From an uncultured Candidatus Saccharibacteria bacterium (lineage in GTDB: Bacteria > Patescibacteriota > Minisyncoccia > Phycocordibacterales > GWA1-40-21), in NCBI GenBank assembly GCA_964513515.1, contig CAZEMP010000001.1, forward strand, positions 75,336 through 139,335: a stretch of DNA of 64,000 nt, given 5' to 3'. Shown piece by piece: positions 5,892 to 64,000 of this stretch. Position numbers and translations under genes: made by a program. The first letter of the stretch is position 1; each line of letters begins with the position of its first letter. The notes beneath the pieces are model-generated. The model did no database searches. It saw nothing but the letters and a program-made list of their open reading frames with translations, and had not been told where the DNA came from.

Positions 5892-6009
5892 CAGAAAGAT
5901 AATTACCAGCTAATATCTTGACAAAGATTTTATCTATTATAACATTATGAACGAGTCGAATGCACATCGGCTGCCCCTCTCGAGAGGGTCGCCTGTGCCC
6001 AATACTCAA

Positions 6010-6049
6010 GACCCCGGAAGCGCGAGCTACCGGGGTCCCCTTTTTTTTA
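6010..6049 (+). terminator. intrinsic terminator
   Basis: GACCCCGGaagcgcgagctaCCGGGGTC followed by a T9 run. Confidence 0.6.
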
Positions 6050-6085
6050 TTTAAAATATCTTCTTATGATATAATTTGATTAATT

Positions 6086-7037: not shown

Positions 7038-7460
7038 ATGTTAAATTTTAAACAAAGTGAAAATTCACACGGGGCAAGAAAAACATCTATAATCTTTCTT
7101 GTTTCTTTTTTGCTAAATGTGGTATGGGAAAATTTACATTCATATTTATATGCAAATTATATGGGAGAAAATATTACTCAATTTATTTTAGTTAGGGCTT
7201 CCCTATTTGATGCACTATTAATAACACTTATATCACTTCCCTTTTTATATTTTAATTCGTTAAAATATAAAGTATGGATAATACTTATTCCTGCCACAAT
7301 TATTGCAGTGATTAATGAATGGTATGGATTAGGAACTGCTCGTTGGGCATATAATGAGCTTATGCCTATAATACCTATCTTAAATACAGGAATTACACCA
7401 ACAATACAACTTGGTTTGTTGGCTTACTTTTCATTTAAAATTGAAGAGTATCTGTCTTAA
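7038..7460 (+). CDS. hypothetical integral membrane protein
   Basis: 140 aa with about 4 predicted TM helices. No family assigned. Confidence 0.4.
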   Translation: MLNFKQSENSHGARKTSIIFLVSFLLNVVWENLHSYLYANYMGENITQFILVRASLFDALLITLISLPFLYFNSLKYKVWIILIPATIIAVINEWYGLGTARWAYNELMPIIPILNTGITPTIQLGLLAYFSFKIEEYLS

Positions 7461-7502: not shown

Positions 7503-8573
7503 TTATTCACCTTTATCGTATTTTTCTAAATAGTTTGTAAGTTGCCTGTTTACTTTTATAAAAGTAGCTCTCTTGGGAAATTCTTTAAGCTGTCTTGCAC
7601 CAATGTATGTAGCTGTACTCCTCAAAGATCCCATAAGATCTTGTATAAAATCGTGTAAATCGCCCTTGTGAGGTATAAGCGTGTATCTTCCTTCACTTGC
7701 TCTATGACTATCTTTTTTGCCATATAGCTCTATCATTGCTTTATTTGATGATGAACCAAAATATTCTTTAAACTTTTTACCGTCTTTTATAATTGTTTCT
7801 CCACCACTTTGTTCATATCCGGAAAATAAAGATCCGCACATATTAAAATCAGCACCACCACAAAATGCCTTTGCTATATCTGAAGGATATTGCTGTCCCC
7901 CATCAGCTATTATCCTTCCCACACCCTTTTCATTCGCTATACCATGTGCAGAATCTGCACATTCAATAACAGCAGAAAGCTGAGGATATCCAACCCCAGT
8001 CATTCTTCTTGTGGTACAAGCAGAACCAGGCCCAATACCTATTTTTACAATATCTGCTCCAGCTAAAATAATTTCCTCAGTAATTTCATTTGTTACTACA
8101 TTTCCAGCAATGATTATATGTTTTGGACAAAGTTTTCTTATTAATCTTATAGTTTCTAAAAATGATTGAAGATATCCATTTGGTACATCAAGACAAATAA
8201 ATGAAAATTTCTCAAGTAAACCTTTCTTTTTCATAACTTTTAATTGCTCAATGTCTTTTTCGCGCATTCCAAGGGTGTAACAAATATAATCTGGATTATT
8301 GAAAGTCTTAAAAAAATCTTGATATTCTTTTACAGTATAATATTTATGAAAAGTAGTAATCATTTTATACTTTGAAAGTATTCTTGCCATCTCATATGTG
8401 CCACATGTTGCCATATTGGCTGTCATTATGGGCAAGCCTGTCCATTTTTTAGGTGAATTATAAAAAGTAAGTGTTCTTTCAAGTAAAACGTCTTTTCTAG
8501 ATTCTAGTGTACTTCTCTTTGGTCTTAGTAATACATCCTGATAATCCAATTTCACATCATCTATTATTCTCAT
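7503..8573 (-). CDS. guaC: GMP reductase (IMPDH/GMPR family)
   Basis: Collinear with E. coli GuaC ([26 protein letters not shown]... and GIGPGSVCTTR). It has no CBS insertion. Confidence 0.75.
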
Positions 8574-8603
8574 ATATTTAAAGTATACACTAAATTATTT
8601 TTT

Positions 8604-8648
8604 CAACAAAAGAATAGGGCCCGAGTCTCGTAAAGACGACTCGGGCCC
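8604..8648 (-). terminator. intrinsic terminator of the minus-strand GC-rich unit
   Basis: Perfect 11-bp stem GGGCCCGAGTC/GACTCGGGCCC followed on the minus strand by TATTCTTTTGTTG. Confidence 0.6.
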
Positions 8649-9385
8649 CTTGCCAAATTTTGATAGGCACATTCTTTTGTCATGCTCTCTGCAGAGCATC
8701 AAGATCTTTGTTATTTGGGCCCTTGGCGGAGCCCATAACGCGGATCAGAACATTCCTCACCGTTGGCCAGACGATACAGGTGTGGTTAGTACCCGTATTT
8801 GATGCATTTCGCAGACCACCTGAGGTATTACCTCAAGCAATCTAGATCCTCCCGGACCCCTATGGATCAGTTATCCATAGACTTGTGACAAGAAAGAAAT
8901 CGTAGAAATGAGAGCCCTTGCGGACAACTCTTCCCTAGACTTCTCAAGACTTCTAGACATTGCATATTTTGGTTGCCTTTATGGCTTCCATTTGGTCCTT
9001 GTTTAAGGGATCAATGTGAATTGTCACTACCTTAGCCTGGAGGCATGGGGTAATAACTTTCCACAATATGTTCTGTGACAACTCTTTTCCCTTTCGAGTT
9101 AAGAGTTATGGATTTGATCTGTTTAGGATCTTTTCCACATCACCTACTGTCGTTACTCTTACTCGCGTAAGTTCACGGGAAGTAGGTTGATTAGCTAGAA
9201 GTCGCTGCATCTTGTGTGACTGCCGTTCGAGCGGGTTCGAGGCCCACTTATATTTCCCTGATGGTTTCGAGGCCATCATTTCTCGTCTGTCTGCGAGAAG
9301 GAACAACAGTTTGCGTGCGCAAAATCTTTTTGCTACGCTGTGCCAACTAAATTTGTGAAAGAACTGATTTACGTTACAACTAAAA
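8649..9385 (-). ncRNA. candidate large structured non-coding RNA (~740-780 nt, class unknown)
   Basis: GC-elevated block (~45% vs ~30% background) bounded by a promoter and terminator on the minus strand. It has no ORF of 60 aa or more in the transcribed orientation. Confidence 0.35.
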
Positions 9386-9391
9386 CTTGAA

Positions 9392-9418
9392 CGTGCTATG
9401 TATACTATCGAAATTAAA
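9392..9418 (-). promoter_or_regulatory. sigma70-like promoter (minus strand TTGACA-16-TAGTAT)
   Basis: The reverse complement of 9392-9418 reads TTGACAgattttttaatttcgaTAGTAT. Confidence 0.4.
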
Positions 9419-9509
9419 AAATCTGTCAAATAATATAACTGTGGATAACTTTTTTCACCAAAATATCTTTATATTATAAGGATATTTTGGTAGAAAATTA
9501 TTATTTTGT

Positions 9510-10205
9510 GTGGATTATCAAAAATACATTTTTAATAAATTTAATTTAACTTTACATTTATTTCTAATACTTATATCATTAATGTATATGAATAAAGAAA
9601 AGACGCACAAAAATATTTTAATGATAATAAAGTGTCTTCAAATGCTTTATAAACCATTCCCTGCAGTCATCGTTGCGTGTCTTTTTTGGTATTTTATTTT
9701 TTTTAAGAATCAAATTTTTCTAAATCTTCCTATTGAAATAATAAACACTTGGATTTCTATGTTTGGTCTTTTGTATGGTCTTTTAGCTGCAGTAGTTTTG
9801 TCTACAGTATGGAATGAATACAAAACAATGCGTACAGCTGTAAAAAAATATGACTTTGAAACATTCATTGATCTTCGTGATGAGGAAATATCTCCACTAG
9901 TGCATACCTTAATGTTTGTGCTTTCAGGAATGATACTTCTTGCGTTTATGTGTCAAAAATTTAATGGCCTTTATAGTGGTTTTCTATTAATTGGTACTAC
10001 AACATATATTTTTACCCTTCTATTTCTTGTTATATACGAGATAGATGATCCGTGCACTGGTACATGGTATATCAAGAACATTCCAAAGGAATGGCTTATG
10101 ATTGATCCTAAAAAATATCGTGAGGAGATGAGACATAAAAAGGGCCGTGAAGAATTTAAAGCTGTCCTTAAATATGGAAGAAGAAAAGGAGATCTTAATC
10201 TTTAA
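9510..10205 (+). CDS. hypothetical integral membrane protein
   Basis: 231-aa ORF with several TM helices. The true start may be internal. Confidence 0.4.
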   Translation: MDYQKYIFNKFNLTLHLFLILISLMYMNKEKTHKNILMIIKCLQMLYKPFPAVIVACLFWYFIFFKNQIFLNLPIEIINTWISMFGLLYGLLAAVVLSTVWNEYKTMRTAVKKYDFETFIDLRDEEISPLVHTLMFVLSGMILLAFMCQKFNGLYSGFLLIGTTTYIFTLLFLVIYEIDDPCTGTWYIKNIPKEWLMIDPKKYREEMRHKKGREEFKAVLKYGRRKGDLNL

Positions 10206-24400: not shown

Positions 24401-24428
24401 TTGACAAAAGATAGTTATGCTATATATT
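24401..24428 (+). promoter_or_regulatory. sigma70-like promoter (TTGACA-16-TATATT)
   Basis: TTGACA at 24401-24406 and TATATT at 24423-24428. Confidence 0.45.
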
Positions 24429-24468
24429 ACTAGACTTATGTTCTTTCGTTTTATATCGCAATCAATTT

Positions 24469-24660
24469 TTGTCGAGAAAACAAACCCGTAATGGAGGATC
24501 GGTGCGAGTCAGGAAGCATCACATACTCACAGGTAGGGTGATGGAGTCGTTCTGTCCCGGATTCAAGGGCTTCGACAAGAGGATGAAGGAGAGGGCGGTA
24601 CTGCGTGTGTACGACCACCTGAAGAGTCAGGGCGAGCTCGTCCACATGGGGAGGAAGTAA
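24469..24660 (+). other. GC-rich small transcription unit (structured sRNA or small basic protein; unresolved)
   Basis: Segment of ~55% GC between a near-consensus promoter and a strong terminator. The frame starting at TTG 24469 gives a 63-aa basic peptide. An internal ATG with an SD-like AGGTAGGGTG gives 40 aa. Confidence 0.3.
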
Positions 24661-24683
24661 CGCTGGGCAACCAGCAAAAAGAC

Positions 24684-24712
24684 GGCGGGGTAATCACCCC
24701 GCCTCTTTCTAT
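24684..24712. terminator. bidirectional intrinsic terminator
   Basis: GGCGGGGtaatcaCCCCGCC with T-rich runs on both strands. It also follows the rmuC stop. Confidence 0.6.
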
Positions 24713-26373: not shown

Positions 26374-26401
26374 TTGACATAACTCAATATAGTGTTATAG
26401 T
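26374..26401 (+). promoter_or_regulatory. sigma70 consensus promoter (TTGACA-16-TATAGT)
   Basis: Exact -35 hexamer at 26374-26379 and TATAGT at 26396-26401. Confidence 0.5.
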
Positions 26402-26450
26402 TGAACTTGAGCTTTGTTCACCACGTCGTAAACAGAGAGGTTCTTAAACA

Positions 26451-26717
26451 GTGGCGGTAACGATCGATACGTCTCGCGTTTCGACGCAGGATGTCGCGTG
26501 CACCCGAAAATGGATCGCTATTCATGGCTTCTGCGGCCTTGCCTTCACCAAAGCGGAAGAGGAACGCAATCTCCCCTCTGGGACGATGGCGAGCTACTTC
26601 GGCAAGCGCAGACTGATGAAGAAGCGGTCTGTCGAGAGGCGCCCTTTGGAGAAGGCGCGCGTCCCCATTCCCAATTGCAGGGACTGGATGGCGGAGTGGG
26701 AGGCAAACCAGCCTTAA
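26451..26717 (+). other. GC-rich small transcription unit (88-aa GTG-initiated ORF or structured RNA; unresolved)
   Basis: ~57% GC. The ORF ends 6 nt before a strong terminator. An alternative 80-aa frame overlaps it, so coding status is ambiguous. Confidence 0.3.
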
Positions 26718-26723
26718 GAATGG

Positions 26724-26758
26724 GGGCGGGTCTAGTATAGACCCGCCCCTCTTTCATT
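26724..26758 (+). terminator. intrinsic terminator
   Basis: GGGCGGGTCTAgtataTAGACCCGCCC followed by CTCTTTCATTTG. Confidence 0.65.
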
Positions 26759-26803
26759 TGTTCAAAATATTAAAAACTGTTATATTTGTTTTTGTATTTC
26801 ATT

Positions 26804-26875
26804 GGCCTTATCGTCTAACGGTTAGGACACGGCCTTCTCAAGGCTGTAATCGGGGTTCGATTCCCCGTAAGGTCA
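26804..26875 (+). tRNA. tRNA-Glu (anticodon CTC)
   Basis: Manual fold. Acceptor GGCCTTA/TAAGGTC, D-arm GTCT..GGAC, anticodon stem CGGCC/GGCTG with loop TTCTCAA, T-arm CGGGG-TTCGATT-CCCCG, discriminator A. Confidence 0.75.
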
Positions 26876-26888
26876 CAAAAATAATAAA

Positions 26889-26926
26889 CCTGACACAAAG
26901 TATTGTGTCAGGTGATTATATTTTTG
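26889..26926 (+). terminator. intrinsic terminator after tRNA-Glu
   Basis: CCTGACACAaagtatTGTGTCAGG followed by TGATTATATTTTTG. Confidence 0.5.
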
Positions 26927-26931
26927 TAGAG

Positions 26932-26947
26932 CTTACGGGGAATCGAA
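26932..26947. repeat. 16-nt inverted copy of the tRNA-Glu T-arm/acceptor 3' segment
   Basis: CTTACGGGGAATCGAA is the reverse complement of tRNA positions 26856-26871. Confidence 0.5.
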
Positions 26948-33802: not shown

Positions 33803-34468
33803 TTAAATATTCGTCTTAGGTTTTTTTCTAACAAAAAAGAATTTATTAAACATATAATAATTATAACGTCCTTTTACTCTTGCATTTCCTATATTTAATG
33901 AATCAAACCCATCAGAATATCTTTCAGGTCTTCCACTATAATAAAAAATAAACTGAGTTATACCATAATATTCAACCTTTTGATCTATGGGTTTCATAGC
34001 AACATTTATCCAATCTGGGTTATCATTATATTTCCCATTAATATATTGTGGGACAGTAAAAGGAATTGATATCGCCAAGCTAGCAGGAACAAAATCTAAT
34101 CCATTTTCTTTTGCTTTTTTTACAATATCCTTATAAGGATGAATTTCTTTGTCATTAAATAAATCTTCAGTATTAACAATTACTACATCGTAATAACTCT
34201 CCAACTTCTCACTCCAATTTACCTTATCCATCATTCTCGAAAGTTCAGAGAGCCTGTCGTATCTTGCTACCTTATATCCTTTTTCTGTGAGCTTATCGAG
34301 AGCTGTCATAGTAGAGATTATTTCTGGATCAGGAATAACTTGTTTCCAAGTTGGAAACTTTTTTTCTTGTTTTATAGATTCAGGAGTCTTTATTGAAGCT
34401 GAAAGTTTAATTCCCTCATCTGAAAATTCTGGTTTACTATATTTTTCTTTTCCAAATGGCCATTCCAT
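33803..34468 (-). CDS. MEWPFG-family paralog 1 (uncharacterised)
   Basis: 221 aa. Shares the N-terminus MEWPFGKE, the PDPEI(I/N)S block, D.H.Y.EI...GL.L.P, and a C-terminal FFFVRK with the next two ORFs. Confidence 0.5.
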   Translation of the reverse strand: MEWPFGKEKYSKPEFSDEGIKLSASIKTPESIKQEKKFPTWKQVIPDPEIISTMTALDKLTEKGYKVARYDRLSELSRMMDKVNWSEKLESYYDVVIVNTEDLFNDKEIHPYKDIVKKAKENGLDFVPASLAISIPFTVPQYINGKYNDNPDWINVAMKPIDQKVEYYGITQFIFYYSGRPERYSDGFDSLNIGNARVKGRYNYYMFNKFFFVRKKPKTNI

Positions 34469-34481
34469 ATATATTTATTAA

Positions 34482-35063
34482 TTATTTACGAACAAATAAA
34501 AATTCTTCATCAGGATTGAATTTAAAATTATTAGAACCACCTATCTGACCTAACCATAAATTATTATCAAAAGTATTTAATCCACAAGTAAATAGTAAAG
34601 TTGAGTATTTAGTCTCTATTGCCTTAGTGGCAATCACTCTATCTTTGTCTTTTTTATAATTTAAGCAAATTTCAGTCACTAAGGTGGGTGGAACAAGTTC
34701 AAGTCCGTAATCTTCTTTCGCCTTTGTTATAATTTCCCAGTAAGTGTGAAATTTGTCATCGTCAAAAAGTTCGTTTACAGAAATAGAAACGATTTTATAT
34801 GGATTTTTAGGTTTTTCTTTCCAATTTAATTCTTGTAACATTTCCTTGGCAGAATCACTTATTTTATATCCCACAGAAACTAGTTTGTTGTTTGCTATTA
34901 AGATTGAATTAATTTCTGGATCAGGAGTAATATCTTTCTTGAATAGAAATTCTGGTTTCCTTTTACTTTTTATGTTTATATTTTCTATTGGAGCAGAAAA
35001 TTGAATTCCGTTATCTAGGAATTTTTCCTTACTATATTCTTCTTTTCCAAAAGGCCATTCCAT
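34482..35063 (-). CDS. MEWPFG-family paralog 2 (uncharacterised)
   Basis: 193 aa with the same conserved blocks. 13-nt spacing to its neighbours. Confidence 0.5.
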   Translation of the reverse strand: MEWPFGKEEYSKEKFLDNGIQFSAPIENINIKSKRKPEFLFKKDITPDPEINSILIANNKLVSVGYKISDSAKEMLQELNWKEKPKNPYKIVSISVNELFDDDKFHTYWEIITKAKEDYGLELVPPTLVTEICLNYKKDKDRVIATKAIETKYSTLLFTCGLNTFDNNLWLGQIGGSNNFKFNPDEEFLFVRK

Positions 35064-35076
35064 ATATGTTTATTTT

Positions 35077-35640
35077 TTATTTACGAATAAAAAAGAACTG
35101 GTGCCAAGAACGCCAATAGTGATCATCTAGACCAGAGTCAACACCCAGAAAAGACTCACCGCCAGATTCATTACAAAAGAATAGTCTTTGATCATCATAC
35201 GCATCACTTATGGGTTCAATTGCGATAACCACTAAACCCACATCCTTAGAATAATTTTTTCTGATACTTGGAACAAGTTTTGCTGGTATTAGTTTTAATC
35301 CTTGTTTGTCTGCCTCTTCTTTTATTTCTTTATATGTATGGTCGGATTTATCTTTGAATAGTTGCTTGACCATTATTAGAGCCATGTCATATCTTTCTTT
35401 TAGTTCTTTTTTATAGTTTATATCAAATAGAAACGGTTTAGCATAATAACTTATTACGTGACCATCTTTTTCAAGTTTTTGTATAGCTGTTTCTGCAGAA
35501 ATTATTTCAGGATCTGGAGTTATTTCTTTCCATATAGGAGAATTTTCAGGTTTTTTAATAGATTCAAATGGTCTCATTTGAGTGTCACCAGTTGCTATTT
35601 CTAGTTTATTAATTTTTTCTTCTCCAAATGGCCATTCCAT
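35077..35640 (-). CDS. MEWPFG-family paralog 3 (uncharacterised)
   Basis: 187 aa with the same conserved blocks. Confidence 0.5.
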   Translation of the reverse strand: MEWPFGEEKINKLEIATGDTQMRPFESIKKPENSPIWKEITPDPEIISAETAIQKLEKDGHVISYYAKPFLFDINYKKELKERYDMALIMVKQLFKDKSDHTYKEIKEEADKQGLKLIPAKLVPSIRKNYSKDVGLVVIAIEPISDAYDDQRLFFCNESGGESFLGVDSGLDDHYWRSWHQFFFIRK

Positions 35641-35706
35641 ATAAATATATTTTTAGTATTAAATTTTCTGTGTTTTCCTTATACTTATACGAAATACTTA
35701 TACTAT

Positions 35707-45376: not shown

Positions 45377-45610
45377 TTACGCTTCCGGTTTGGAAGTGAA
45401 AAACCCCCACGTAAAGCTGTAATGGTGCGCTTCCGCACCGCAATTCATACAGCTTGTCTTGTAATAGGATCCCCATTTCCTATCCGTGATCTTGGTCTTG
45501 AAGCTTCCACAGACCCCGCACCTACCTGCCCGAAAGGTAAAGAGTACGACGGCTCCGACACCAACCAGAACTGCTCCAGAAACCGCTGCGACTACTGCAG
45601 GCGTTGGCAT
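45377..45610 (-). CDS. small TM + CxxC...CxxC zinc-ribbon protein, GC-rich copy
   Basis: ~77 aa starting MPTPAVV. The SD is GGGAGG. One TM helix, then the CGVCGS...CMNCG motifs. ~58% GC. Confidence 0.45.
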   Translation of the reverse strand: MPTPAVVAAVSGAVLVGVGAVVLFTFRAGRCGVCGSFKTKITDRKWGSYYKTSCMNCGAEAHHYSFTWGFFTSKPEA

Positions 45611-45757
45611 TAGGACAGCCTCCCAAGAAAGTTGAATTAACAACCGGAAAAATATATACTAAATAAATATATATGTCAATATAAATAACTTATAAGAAAA
45701 CAAAAAGCCCAGAACAAAAGGCTTTTTGTCTGGACTACTAACTTCTTTGGTGTAATA

Positions 45758-46003
45758 CTATCTGCTAAAGATCCTGTTGGCAAAATGGCTTACCTTGCCA
45801 ATACCACATCTTTTGCAGATCTTCTCTACTATGATGTAGTAGACATCTCCATGATGTTGACTAGAACCCTTGGCGTGCCTAAGCTTAAGGGTGATCTTAG
45901 AGCTTTTACAAAGATCACATTTTCCTCTCAACCTAAAGAACAGCACGATTCCAACAATGAGTAGAATCGTGATGAGAAAAATCACGACTTCTAACATTGT
46001 CAT
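45758..46003 (-). CDS. small TM + CxxC...CxxC zinc-ribbon protein, AT-rich paralog
   Basis: 81 aa with SD AGGAGG. One TM helix, then the CDLCKS...CKRCG motifs. Shares the FR.RG.C..C.S.K...YY...C..CG...HF pattern with the GC-rich copy, and has a similar terminator hairpin. Confidence 0.45.
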   Translation of the reverse strand: MTMLEVVIFLITILLIVGIVLFFRLRGKCDLCKSSKITLKLRHAKGSSQHHGDVYYIIVEKICKRCGIGKVSHFANRIFSR

Positions 46004-46087
46004 AATATCGACCTCCTGAAAAATTCGTATTGACTATAAAAATAGTACATTAAATAATATACATGTGTCAAATATTAAATTAATGCG

Positions 46088-63236: not shown

Positions 63237-63373
63237 CCCCCACACCTATCTTGTTATCGTTGCATTATGTTTTTAATATTAATCAATATTAATCTTTGTT
63301 TATTAAAAAAACTTACCTTAGTTATAAATCTTTATTGGCAACAAAAACACAAAAACGAGATAGGTGTGGGGGA
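63237..63373. repeat. 137-nt palindromic unit (CCCCACACCTAT...AT-rich core...AGATAGGTGTGGGG), copy downstream of rnpB
   Basis: The arms are CCCCCACACCTATCTTGTTATCGTTGC and GCAACAAAAACAC...GAGATAGGTGTGGGGG. The pattern repeats at 63512-63647, and a partial motif lies at 63928-63940. Confidence 0.55.
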
Positions 63374-63379
63374 AAAGAA

Positions 63380-63876
63380 AAGGGGGCACCTTTCGGTACT
63401 CCCTTTCCATAACCTTTATACCTATAAGCCGAATTCTGTTTGTTGTATTACTACAACAAGATAATCATCTGTCTGGGCCAAACATTACTGTTTAGCTCAA
63501 GCGGCGCTTCCCCACACCTATTCTGTTATCATTGCTATCGTGTTTTAAGATACTAGACGATATTAACTTTTATTTACTAAGTAGACTTAATATCATTTTA
63601 CAAGTCTCGCTTAGCAACAAAAACACAATAATAGAATAGGTGTGGGGACTCGGCCTTGCACCAAGGTAAGGAATTTTGCCGTTGCACCCTTATGTTGCCA
63701 TAAGGACTATCCACTAGGGATATCTCCATTCTTTCGTCTGGAGCCGTTTCTGTTCGCACCTCTCATATTGCTATGGACGGGCGTTACCCGCTACCCTTCT
63801 CCTCAACTTTAACATTGAGGTGATGTTCGGACTTTCCTCCCCAACAAAGTTGGAGCAATTATCCAATATAAAGGCA
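63380..63876 (-). ncRNA. rnpB: RNase P RNA (bacterial type A-like) containing a 136-nt palindromic insertion
   Basis: Minus-strand motifs GGAGGAAAGTCCGAAC (P4/CR-I), GGGTAGCGGGTAACGCCCGTCC, GTGCGAACAGAAACGGCTCC, GCCGCTTGAGC and ACAGAATTCGGCTTATAGG (CR-IV). P1 pairs CCTTTATA with TATAAAGG. A terminator hairpin lies at 63377-63410. Confidence 0.65.
63512..63647. repeat. 136-nt palindromic unit embedded in the P15-P17 region of rnpB
   Basis: CCCCACACCTATTCTGTTATCATTGC...GCAACAAAAACACAATAATAGAATAGGTGTGGGGA. The conserved RNase P segment GCCGCTTGAGC follows directly. Confidence 0.55.
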
Positions 63877-64000
63877 ACTAAATTATACAATAATCTTTTA
63901 TATTTATCAAGTATTGTTAGGTTATAGTAGGTGTGGGTGATATAGTTTACATGGATGTAAGGAGCGGAGTTCATTCTCTACTCCGTTGACAACTCGCGCT

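Follow-up and report, generated by a model that had tools for sequence, protein, structure and literature searches.

A candidate large structured noncoding RNA with its own promoter and terminator in a genome of Candidatus Saccharibacteria

Introduction

Few bacterial RNAs are both large and intricately folded, and RNase P RNA, OLE, GOLLD, and ROOL have each revealed unexpected biochemistry. OLE RNA, which is ~600 nt long and forms a well-conserved family in the Bacillota, still has no known biochemical function. The combination of several GNRA tetraloops with a receptor loop is a hallmark of compact tertiary folding. GOLLD (~800 nt) and ROOL (580 nt) form homo-oligomeric cages that consist of RNA only (PMC12286853), and screens for noncoding RNAs (ncRNAs) in AT-rich genomes make use of long, GC-rich intergenic regions (PMC6429828, PMC11109978). 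Here, we examine a GC-rich unit upstream of guaC, the GMP reductase gene, at positions 8604 to 9430 of a 64,000-nucleotide stretch of DNA (the window; positions 75,336 to 139,335 of contig CAZEMP010000001.1, assembly GCA_964513515.1) from an uncultured Candidatus Saccharibacteria bacterium of the Patescibacteriota. A preliminary description, made from the DNA letters alone, had proposed this unit as a candidate large structured ncRNA of unknown class. Our analysis favors, with moderate confidence, the view that the minus strand encodes a large structured ncRNA that stands alone, acts in trans, and belongs to no described class.

Results

A GC-rich unit framed by a promoter and a terminator

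The GC content of the unit is 44.1% over positions 8604 to 9430 and 45.1% over positions 8604 to 9395, compared to 33.1% window-wide, which bears out the compositional anomaly pointed out in the preliminary description; in the adjoining spacer (9400 to 9600), it falls to 17 to 22%. The following elements delimit the unit.

9424 to 9429, minus strand: −35 hexamer TTGACA (promoter scan and sequence)
9402 to 9407, minus strand: −10 hexamer TAGTAT, with a spacer of 16 nt (promoter scan and sequence)
8604 to 8649, minus strand: intrinsic terminator with a 12-bp GC-rich stem (8649 to 8638 paired with 8627 to 8616) and a U-rich tail (8615 to 8605)
8604 to 9397, minus strand: predicted ncRNA transcript of ~790 nt, with 45% GC and 68% of its bases paired in the minimum free energy (MFE) structure
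9440 to 9448, minus strand: DnaA box TTATCCACA that matches the consensus perfectly, 10 nt ahead of the −35 hexamer

The sequence of the promoter (TTGACA-16-TAGTAT) had been read correctly before, whereas its position had been placed ~10 nt away, at 9392 to 9418 (the −35 element in fact spans 9429 to 9424 and the −10 element 9407 to 9402). Judging from the spacing of these elements, transcription likely starts at ~9397 to 9394. At the other end, the terminator consists of GGGGCCCGAGUC (8649 to 8638), a 10-nt loop, GACUCGGGCCCU (8627 to 8616), and the tail AUUCUUUUGUU (8615 to 8605), so that the GC stem and T-run reported for this site are present, with a stem of 12 bp. It went unseen in our automatic scan because its 10-nt loop exceeds the limit of 8 nt used there. 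According to the fold prediction, an A-tract upstream of the terminator (8681 to 8671) would be able to pair with the U-tail.

Perfect promoters of the form TTGACA-N16-18-TAnnnT occur eight times in the 64 kb, the one of the RNA unit included, and all eight precede short GC-elevated units. Two of them (45679 and 46071, minus strand) drive small open reading frames (ORFs) led by a Shine-Dalgarno (SD) sequence, and the remaining ones precede short, terminator-ended units without an Rfam match. The RNA unit's promoter thus shares its class with the strong promoters of this genome, which argues that it is in use.

The perfect DnaA box beside this promoter is possibly regulatory or possibly a chance occurrence. 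A further box with an 8/9 match lies 60 nt beyond it, at 9509 to 9517 (minus strand), inside the spacer of 17 to 22% GC. The window as a whole shows no enrichment of DnaA boxes (28 observed compared to 21.6 expected), and we dropped a replication origin (oriC) or DnaA-box cluster as a candidate on these grounds.

Predicted structure exceeds composition on one strand

The minus strand of the unit folds with an MFE of −290.8 kcal/mol, compared to −211.5 ± 7.8 kcal/mol for 40 dinucleotide shuffles (z = −10.1), i.e., it is ~38% more stable than the shuffles; the z score is −11.7 with 20 shuffles and −8.9 when the terminator is left out. The corresponding values for the plus strand are −5.1 (40 shuffles), −4.4 (20 shuffles), and −3.3 (terminator left out), and the same procedure gives −7.4 for the RNase P RNA of this genome. 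A sliding scan of 200-nt segments returned negative z scores for the minus strand throughout 8500 to 9400, with a minimum of −6.9, and values close to 0 in most of the coding flanks. Most helices of the minus-strand fold have a pairing probability above 0.9, and nine of its helices are uninterrupted over at least 8 bp (shuffle mean 3.8, maximum 7).

The loops point to the same strand. Four GNRA tetraloops (GCGA, GAAA, GCAA, and GGGA) are predicted on the minus strand, where 60 shuffles contained 0.3 on average and two at most, and the plus strand has none. This enrichment is independent of helix stability and therefore identifies the strand, which is also the one that bears the promoter and the terminator. 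By the generic standard for a structured ncRNA, then, both strand-specific stability and loop motifs exceed what composition provides. No loop-loop pseudoknots of at least 6 bp were found in the RNA.

In the predicted fold, pairing between the 5′ and 3′ regions closes the molecule around a series of hairpin domains, as listed below.

9339 to 9389, minus strand: 5′ strand of the closing helices (RNA nt 12 to 62), paired with 8700 to 8769 at probabilities of mostly 0.8 to 1.0
8700 to 8769, minus strand: 3′ partner in these closing helices (RNA nt 632 to 701), MFE fold
9219 to 9310, minus strand: 5′ domain of three hairpins with a 10-bp closing helix, MFE fold
8948 to 9203, minus strand: central domain with a 9-bp closing helix, GACUUCUAG/CUAGAAGUC, at probabilities of 0.96 to 1.0
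9171 to 9158, minus strand: predicted hairpin with a GCGA loop, central domain
9107 to 9080, minus strand: predicted hairpin with a GAAA loop (9094 to 9091), central domain
9057 to 9023, minus strand: predicted hairpin with a CCAU/UAAG internal loop (9048 to 9032), central domain
8813 to 8945, minus strand: predicted cluster of five hairpins
8921 to 8918 and 8853 to 8850, minus strand: GCAA and GGGA tetraloops, respectively, of the five-hairpin cluster
8843 to 8813, minus strand: 14-bp hairpin of the five-hairpin cluster
8774 to 8798, minus strand: 8-bp hairpin with the 9-nt loop ACUAACCAC, at a probability of 0.96

Two hairpins of the 5′ domain are near duplicates, with the loops CCUCGAAA (9272 to 9265) and CCUCGAA (9242 to 9236). 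They account for the repeated motifs that had been noticed on the opposite strand, which we confirm as GGGTTCGAGGCC (9233 to 9244) and GGTTTCGAGGCC (9263 to 9274) and which correspond, on the RNA strand, to a pair of hairpins that carry CCUCGAA(A) loops; the RNA contains CUCGAA four times. The CCAU/UAAG internal loop of the central domain resembles the 11-nt receptor of GAAA tetraloops, the CCUAAG/UAUGG motif, and is a candidate receptor.

No coding signal and no match to described RNA families

The statement that the region holds no ORF of 60 amino acids or more does not hold literally, since mechanical ORFs of 107 amino acids (9106 to 9429, minus strand) and 61 amino acids (8660 to 8845, plus strand) exist. 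The longer of the two is spurious, as had been supposed: it begins with the TTG of the −35 hexamer, and therefore upstream of any transcript, and it has no match among 5.8 billion protein clusters. Neither a Pfam search of the three minus-strand frames nor a concatenated six-frame query against the same clusters (E ≤ 1) returned anything, and the gene caller annotated nothing in this region on the identical contig in ENA. The sole ORF preceded by an SD sequence encodes 27 amino acids from a TTG start (8840 to 8757), with GGAGG located 7 nt ahead of the TTG and with both SD and start codon inside predicted stable stems. We rejected a protein-coding gene or pseudogene on account of the missing similarity in any frame (Pfam, six-frame query) and the lack of a plausible start beyond that of the 27-amino-acid ORF.

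All 4,227 models of Rfam 15 were searched with cmscan, at the gathering score and at E ≤ 0.05 over the window and at E ≤ 10 over positions 8400 to 9700. At the gathering score, the window yields an RNase P RNA and three tRNAs, all of them elsewhere, and no match at the RNA unit. The permissive search of 8400 to 9700 returned 12 weak matches with bit scores of 12 to 20, far below the gathering score of each family, and none of them to the large bacterial ncRNA families. The models of OLE, GOLLD, ROOL, HEARO, raiA, 6S RNA, riboswitches, and small ribozymes have no match at E ≤ 10, and the same is true for RNase P RNA, transfer-messenger RNA (tmRNA), signal recognition particle (SRP) RNA, and group I and II introns, whose signatures had already been judged absent by eye. 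The genomic context of OLE-, GOLLD-, or ROOL-type RNAs is likewise absent, with no tRNA within 17 kb and no OLE-associated or prophage neighbors.

Patescibacteria harbor tRNA genes that standard tools miss owing to group I introns (PMC13011429), and we therefore reran ARAGORN with long introns. Over the window, it found no tmRNA, and at the unit it found no tRNA, even with introns of up to 1,200 nt. Several specific identities were rejected along these lines: a tmRNA, because ARAGORN and the Rfam tmRNA models were negative; RNase P RNA, because the genuine one of this genome lies at 63409 to 63874 (125 bits) and 8400 to 9700 contains no match; a group I or II intron, because no model matches at E ≤ 10, there is no interrupted tRNA, and the unit has its own promoter and terminator; and a CRISPR, TIGR, or other repeat array, because Tandem Repeats Finder and a repeat search detected none in 8300 to 9700.

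Search for relatives and independence from guaC

The related DNA that we examined amounts to ~0.87 Mb and comprises 74 loci from GTDB genomes fetched around guaC homologues (up to 89% amino acid identity), 11 contexts of genes for Bestrophin-like proteins, and the two contigs with the closest guaC. The homologue search called for in the preliminary description (blastn, nhmmer) returned no relative beyond one near-identical contig: nhmmer with the RNA as query found no homologue in the ~0.87 Mb of Patescibacteria loci, a covariance model of the 5′ domain matched only itself over 0.78 Mb of such loci, and blastn against phage and plasmid records found nothing. Six degenerate DNA patterns, searched by way of a frame-0 pseudo-protein, gave no confirmed match in IMG/VR and the JGI metagenomes; the exact pattern of the receptor hairpin had no match in the JGI metagenomes, and searches of IMG/VR with five patterns either came back empty or returned unrelated coding sequence, namely tandem repeats and a single conserved phage gene. 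The metagenome and IMG/VR scans depend on exact words, and the GTDB genomes were covered through their guaC loci, which leaves room for diverged homologues elsewhere in Patescibacteria genomes. Within the window, we found no paralogue of the RNA, and no terminal, tandem, or target-site repeats surround the unit.

The only other copy is the ENA contig (ERZ27284378), which is 99.97% identical and bears the exact guaC protein; its single difference sits in adapter sequence at the contig end and is hence uninformative. This duplicate (L075) opens, at its positions 1 to 23, with the Illumina adapter ACACGACGCTCTTCCGATCT, an assembly contamination.

The neighbors of the unit are guaC and genes for a Bestrophin-like membrane protein, a LUD-domain protein, a peroxiredoxin, and MsrA/MsrB. 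The boundary toward guaC is marked by an element outside the RNA, as follows.

8582 to 8587, minus strand: −10 element TATACT of guaC itself, 8 nt ahead of the ATG (8573 to 8571)

The terminator of the RNA unit ends 18 nt short of this element. We compared the region with 18 relatives, among them two contigs with a guaC of ≥90% identity. Most of these relatives keep GTGTATACTTTAAATATATG, or a close variant, upstream of guaC, and in all of them the DNA beyond this block is unrelated and contains neither the RNA nor the terminator hairpin. The conservation of a separate guaC promoter where the RNA is absent indicates that the RNA is not a guaC leader. In line with this independence, none of the 74 guaC loci contains a homologue of the RNA (nhmmer), and the terminator is absent upstream of guaC in its 90% cluster mate from Logan contigs.

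guaC itself is up to 89% identical across many Patescibacteria without a shared neighborhood, and the GTGTATACT/GTGTATAAT block (window positions 8574 to 8590) stands 8 to 10 nt ahead of its ATG in most of the relatives compared (L002 to L023, L203, and L204). These observations suggest that guaC travels between genomes as a cassette of promoter and gene with almost no leader.

The organism is poorly sampled. Among 15 billion proteins, its TM140, MsrA, and LUD proteins have no partner at 90% identity (singletons), and the Bestrophin-like protein has 32 homologues, the best of which is 75% identical. In each of the 11 Bestrophin-like contexts, the upstream gene is a different one, which makes this a variable spot.

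Other elements in the window and in related contigs

Five further short GC-rich units lie on the plus strand (2094 to 2275, 2287 to 2450, 5918 to 6050, 24401 to 24710, and 26374 to 26760), each with a perfect TTGACA-16-TAnnnT promoter and a terminator of GC stem and T-run, and no Rfam model matches any of them at E ≤ 0.05. Folding of the surrounding regions gives plus-strand z scores of approximately −4.6 to −5.9. These units may be divergent housekeeping small RNAs (SRP, 6S, or tmRNA-like) or small RNAs of no recognized kind, and for the 24401 unit, a GC-rich peptide of ~39 amino acids is another possible product. The perfect promoters at 45679 and 46071 belong to two small GC-rich genes (~58 and ~85 amino acids; 45400 to 46070, minus strand) with strong GGAGG ribosome-binding sites, whose products have the look, by eye, of small membrane proteins that are hydrophobic and contain cysteines.

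A palindromic, AT-rich element ~135 nt in length, with CCCCACACCTAT...ATAGGTGTGGGG at its bounds, is present in two copies (63238 to 63371 and 63510 to 63647), with a possible partial end at 63927 to 63938. One copy is located inside the RNase P RNA gene (63409 to 63874, minus strand) and the other just downstream of it; the insertion explains why this RNase P RNA measures 466 nt compared to 367 positions in the model. The element looks like a miniature inverted-repeat transposable element (MITE)-like hairpin element that a peripheral helix of the RNase P RNA tolerates. Elsewhere, the 3′ part of tRNA-Glu (26804 to 26876) recurs in inverted orientation ~30 nt downstream (26856 to 26887 and 26916 to 26947, 81% complementary), which could be an att-site-like remnant or a terminator, and positions 34320 to 35651 hold three tandem copies of a ~595-nt unit, with segments 81 to 87% identical, which are presumably paralogous gene repeats.

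A different ORF-less unit of ~580 nt, with up to 55% GC, a TTGACA promoter, and a terminator, is found in a related Paceibacteria-type contig (L198, 5540 to 6140, plus strand), between fmt and the gene of a hibernation factor; two other contigs (L196 and L201) have no insert at this place. Its z score is approximately −10 on both strands, and its 3′ module is common to a ~150-nt unit in another contig (L200; partial relative at 7211 to 7333, minus strand). We found neither an Rfam match for this unit nor any similarity to the ~790-nt RNA, and we dropped homology between the two for this reason.

Discussion

In this work, a GC-rich unit next to guaC was found to combine a host-type promoter, a strong terminator, and a strand-specific excess of predicted structure, and we propose that it is an independent ncRNA gene of ~790 nt on the minus strand, which would be transcribed from a near-consensus σ70 promoter at ~9395 and end at the terminator at ~8605. 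The RNA is predicted to fold into a closed, multidomain, "ornate" architecture in which the 5′ and 3′ regions pair and enclose three internal domains made of many stable hairpins. Four GNRA tetraloops and the receptor-like internal loop probably lock these domains together by tertiary contacts, and the twin CCUCGAA(A) loops, which hold the self-complementary sequence UCGA, could be sites of protein binding or of loop-loop contact. Such an RNA would most likely act in trans as a compact particle, be it an RNA scaffold, the core of a ribonucleoprotein (RNP), or an RNA-only assembly. More tentatively, we entertain the possibility that it is the founding and so far single member of a class of large ornate RNAs in Patescibacteria, in which a ~790-nt particle stabilized by GNRA/receptor contacts would serve an organism of minimal proteome as a ribozyme, as the core of an RNP, or as an RNA-only complex that assembles itself.

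Of the earlier proposal of a large structured ncRNA of unknown class, the part that concerns the molecule itself stands, given the folding z scores, the strand asymmetry, the GNRA loops, the promoter and terminator, and the lack of coding signal and Rfam match; its comparative part does not, as no homologue was found. Several points speak against our interpretation. The proposal rests on one sequence, which may represent a new class of large RNA; with no homologue detected by nhmmer in the related DNA, there is no covariation, no family, and no evidence of purifying selection. The RNA is missing from the 11 Bestrophin-like contexts, relatives lack it beside the flanking genes on both sides, and the variable spot in which it lies fits recently acquired and possibly transient DNA. 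Furthermore, thermodynamic folding of a single sequence can overstate structure, and the tertiary motifs were recognized by eye.

One alternative is that the region is foreign or decaying DNA, i.e., the remnant of a higher-GC segment acquired from a mobile element or phage, rich in hairpins by chance and devoid of a functional RNA gene. An orphan region 12 points above the genome in GC, flanked by the TM140, MsrA, and LUD singletons, without a homologue of the RNA and without conserved synteny on either side, would suit this origin. However, no frame matches any protein, the unit has no terminal or tandem repeats and no second copy in the window, and both the structure excess and the GNRA enrichment are restricted to the strand of the promoter and terminator. 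Moreover, the promoter is of the host type, as in the other strongly promoted units, and an elevated GC content is also seen in further structured RNAs of the same genome, RNase P RNA among them. The preliminary description had held that the absence of homologues would leave the region as decayed or foreign DNA; we judge this too harsh in view of the strand-specific structure, and consider such an origin unlikely while keeping it as a live minority reading. A related scenario, which we rate as improbable, is the insertion, beside the guaC cassette, of a structured RNA that is mobile or selfish, such as an intron-like RNA without an ORF, an RNA associated with a retroelement, or a satellite RNA. 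The sporadic presence of the unit would be explained, the relative L198 bears a different ORF-less structured unit at a site where L196 and L201 lack an insert, and a MITE-like hairpin element is active in the same genome; yet the intron, ribozyme, and HEARO/ω-RNA models are unmatched at E ≤ 10, no gene for a reverse transcriptase, transposase, IscB/TnpB, or integrase is nearby, target-site and terminal repeats are missing, and the unit has its own promoter and terminator and does not lie within a host gene.

The remaining alternatives concern what a transcript from this locus would do. It is rather improbable that it is an mRNA for one or more very small proteins, encoded by the 27-amino-acid ORF or by an ORF of 57 amino acids from an internal ATG within 9106 to 9283, in the manner of the GC-rich small-protein genes of the window. 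Two of the eight perfect promoters do drive small SD-led ORFs whose products look hydrophobic and membrane-like by eye, and a GGAGG lies 7 nt ahead of the TTG at 8840, but this ORF starts with TTG, its SD and start codon are buried in predicted stems, six-frame searches show no protein similarity, and the peptide would take up ~10% of a highly structured 790-nt transcript. The lack of a start codon at the transcription start further argues against a leaderless mRNA. A cis-acting leader or attenuator of guaC, amounting to a giant riboswitch-like element, is suggested by the location of the RNA directly upstream of guaC on the same strand, its terminator ending so close to the guaC −10 element. 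Against this, the guaC −10 block is kept in most of the 18 relatives, all of which lack RNA and terminator, none of the 74 guaC loci has a homologue, no riboswitch model matches, and the terminator is strong, with no obvious antiterminator helix in the fold, although none was searched for specifically. Roles as mRNA and as guaC leader are both unlikely, and the latter, in our estimate, highly so. Finally, on the plus strand, the hairpins GGGTTCGAGGCCC and GGTTTCGAGGCC both have the sequence of a canonical T-arm, and in Patescibacteria, where group I introns hide tRNA genes (PMC13011429), a plus-strand tRNA-like or intron-interrupted tRNA gene comes to mind. This is barely credible here: ARAGORN was negative with introns of up to 1,200 nt allowed, no tRNA or group I model matches at E ≤ 10, folding of the plus strand is much poorer and yields no GNRA loop, a C-A mismatch that one of the stems has on the plus strand corresponds to a G-U pair in the minus-strand fold, and a strong plus-strand promoter is lacking.

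Bacteria of the candidate phyla radiation (CPR)/Patescibacteria have tiny genomes and reduced proteomes, and the fact that ~0.8 kb and one of their strongest types of promoter are given over to an RNA suggests that it is of use to the cell. Should the transcript prove real and relatives be found, it would represent a new class of large RNA from a barely explored phylum, and the RNA would be a tractable target for chemical probing and cryo-electron microscopy. As several other strongly promoted GC-rich units also escape recognition by Rfam, patescibacterial ncRNAs may be generally underannotated.

How does the unit compare with the systems described to date? It carries the identical signature on which GC-composition screens rely, a long intergenic region far above the GC of its AT-rich genome, although the candidates of those screens were accepted only with covariation and no homologue is at hand here. 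The likeness to OLE, GOLLD, ROOL, and HEARO RNAs suggested by the preliminary description holds for size and ornateness only, as the family models are unmatched. Like OLE, the unit is a large, highly structured, stand-alone candidate ncRNA with many hairpins; unlike OLE, it has no match to the Rfam model at E ≤ 10, no adjoining genes of the oapA type, and no known relative, and it belongs to another phylum. With GOLLD and ROOL it shares its size of ~790 nt and an ornate, multihairpin build (PMC12286853, PMC12054373), and its UCGA-bearing loops could in principle mediate RNA-RNA contacts. However, the Rfam models of both are unmatched, the unit lies neither by tRNA clusters nor in a prophage, and no phage or IMG/VR homologue was found. 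Compared to RNase P RNA and the group I and II introns, it lacks the conserved cores, given that no covariance model matches at E ≤ 10, as well as exon context and splice-site features, yet it resembles them in its predicted long-range closing helices, its several GNRA tetraloops, and an internal loop similar to the 11-nt receptor. Since neither model matches nor genomic context tie the RNA to any described family, we place it in none of them and regard the candidate, among the large structured bacterial ncRNAs, as a new class with so far a single member.

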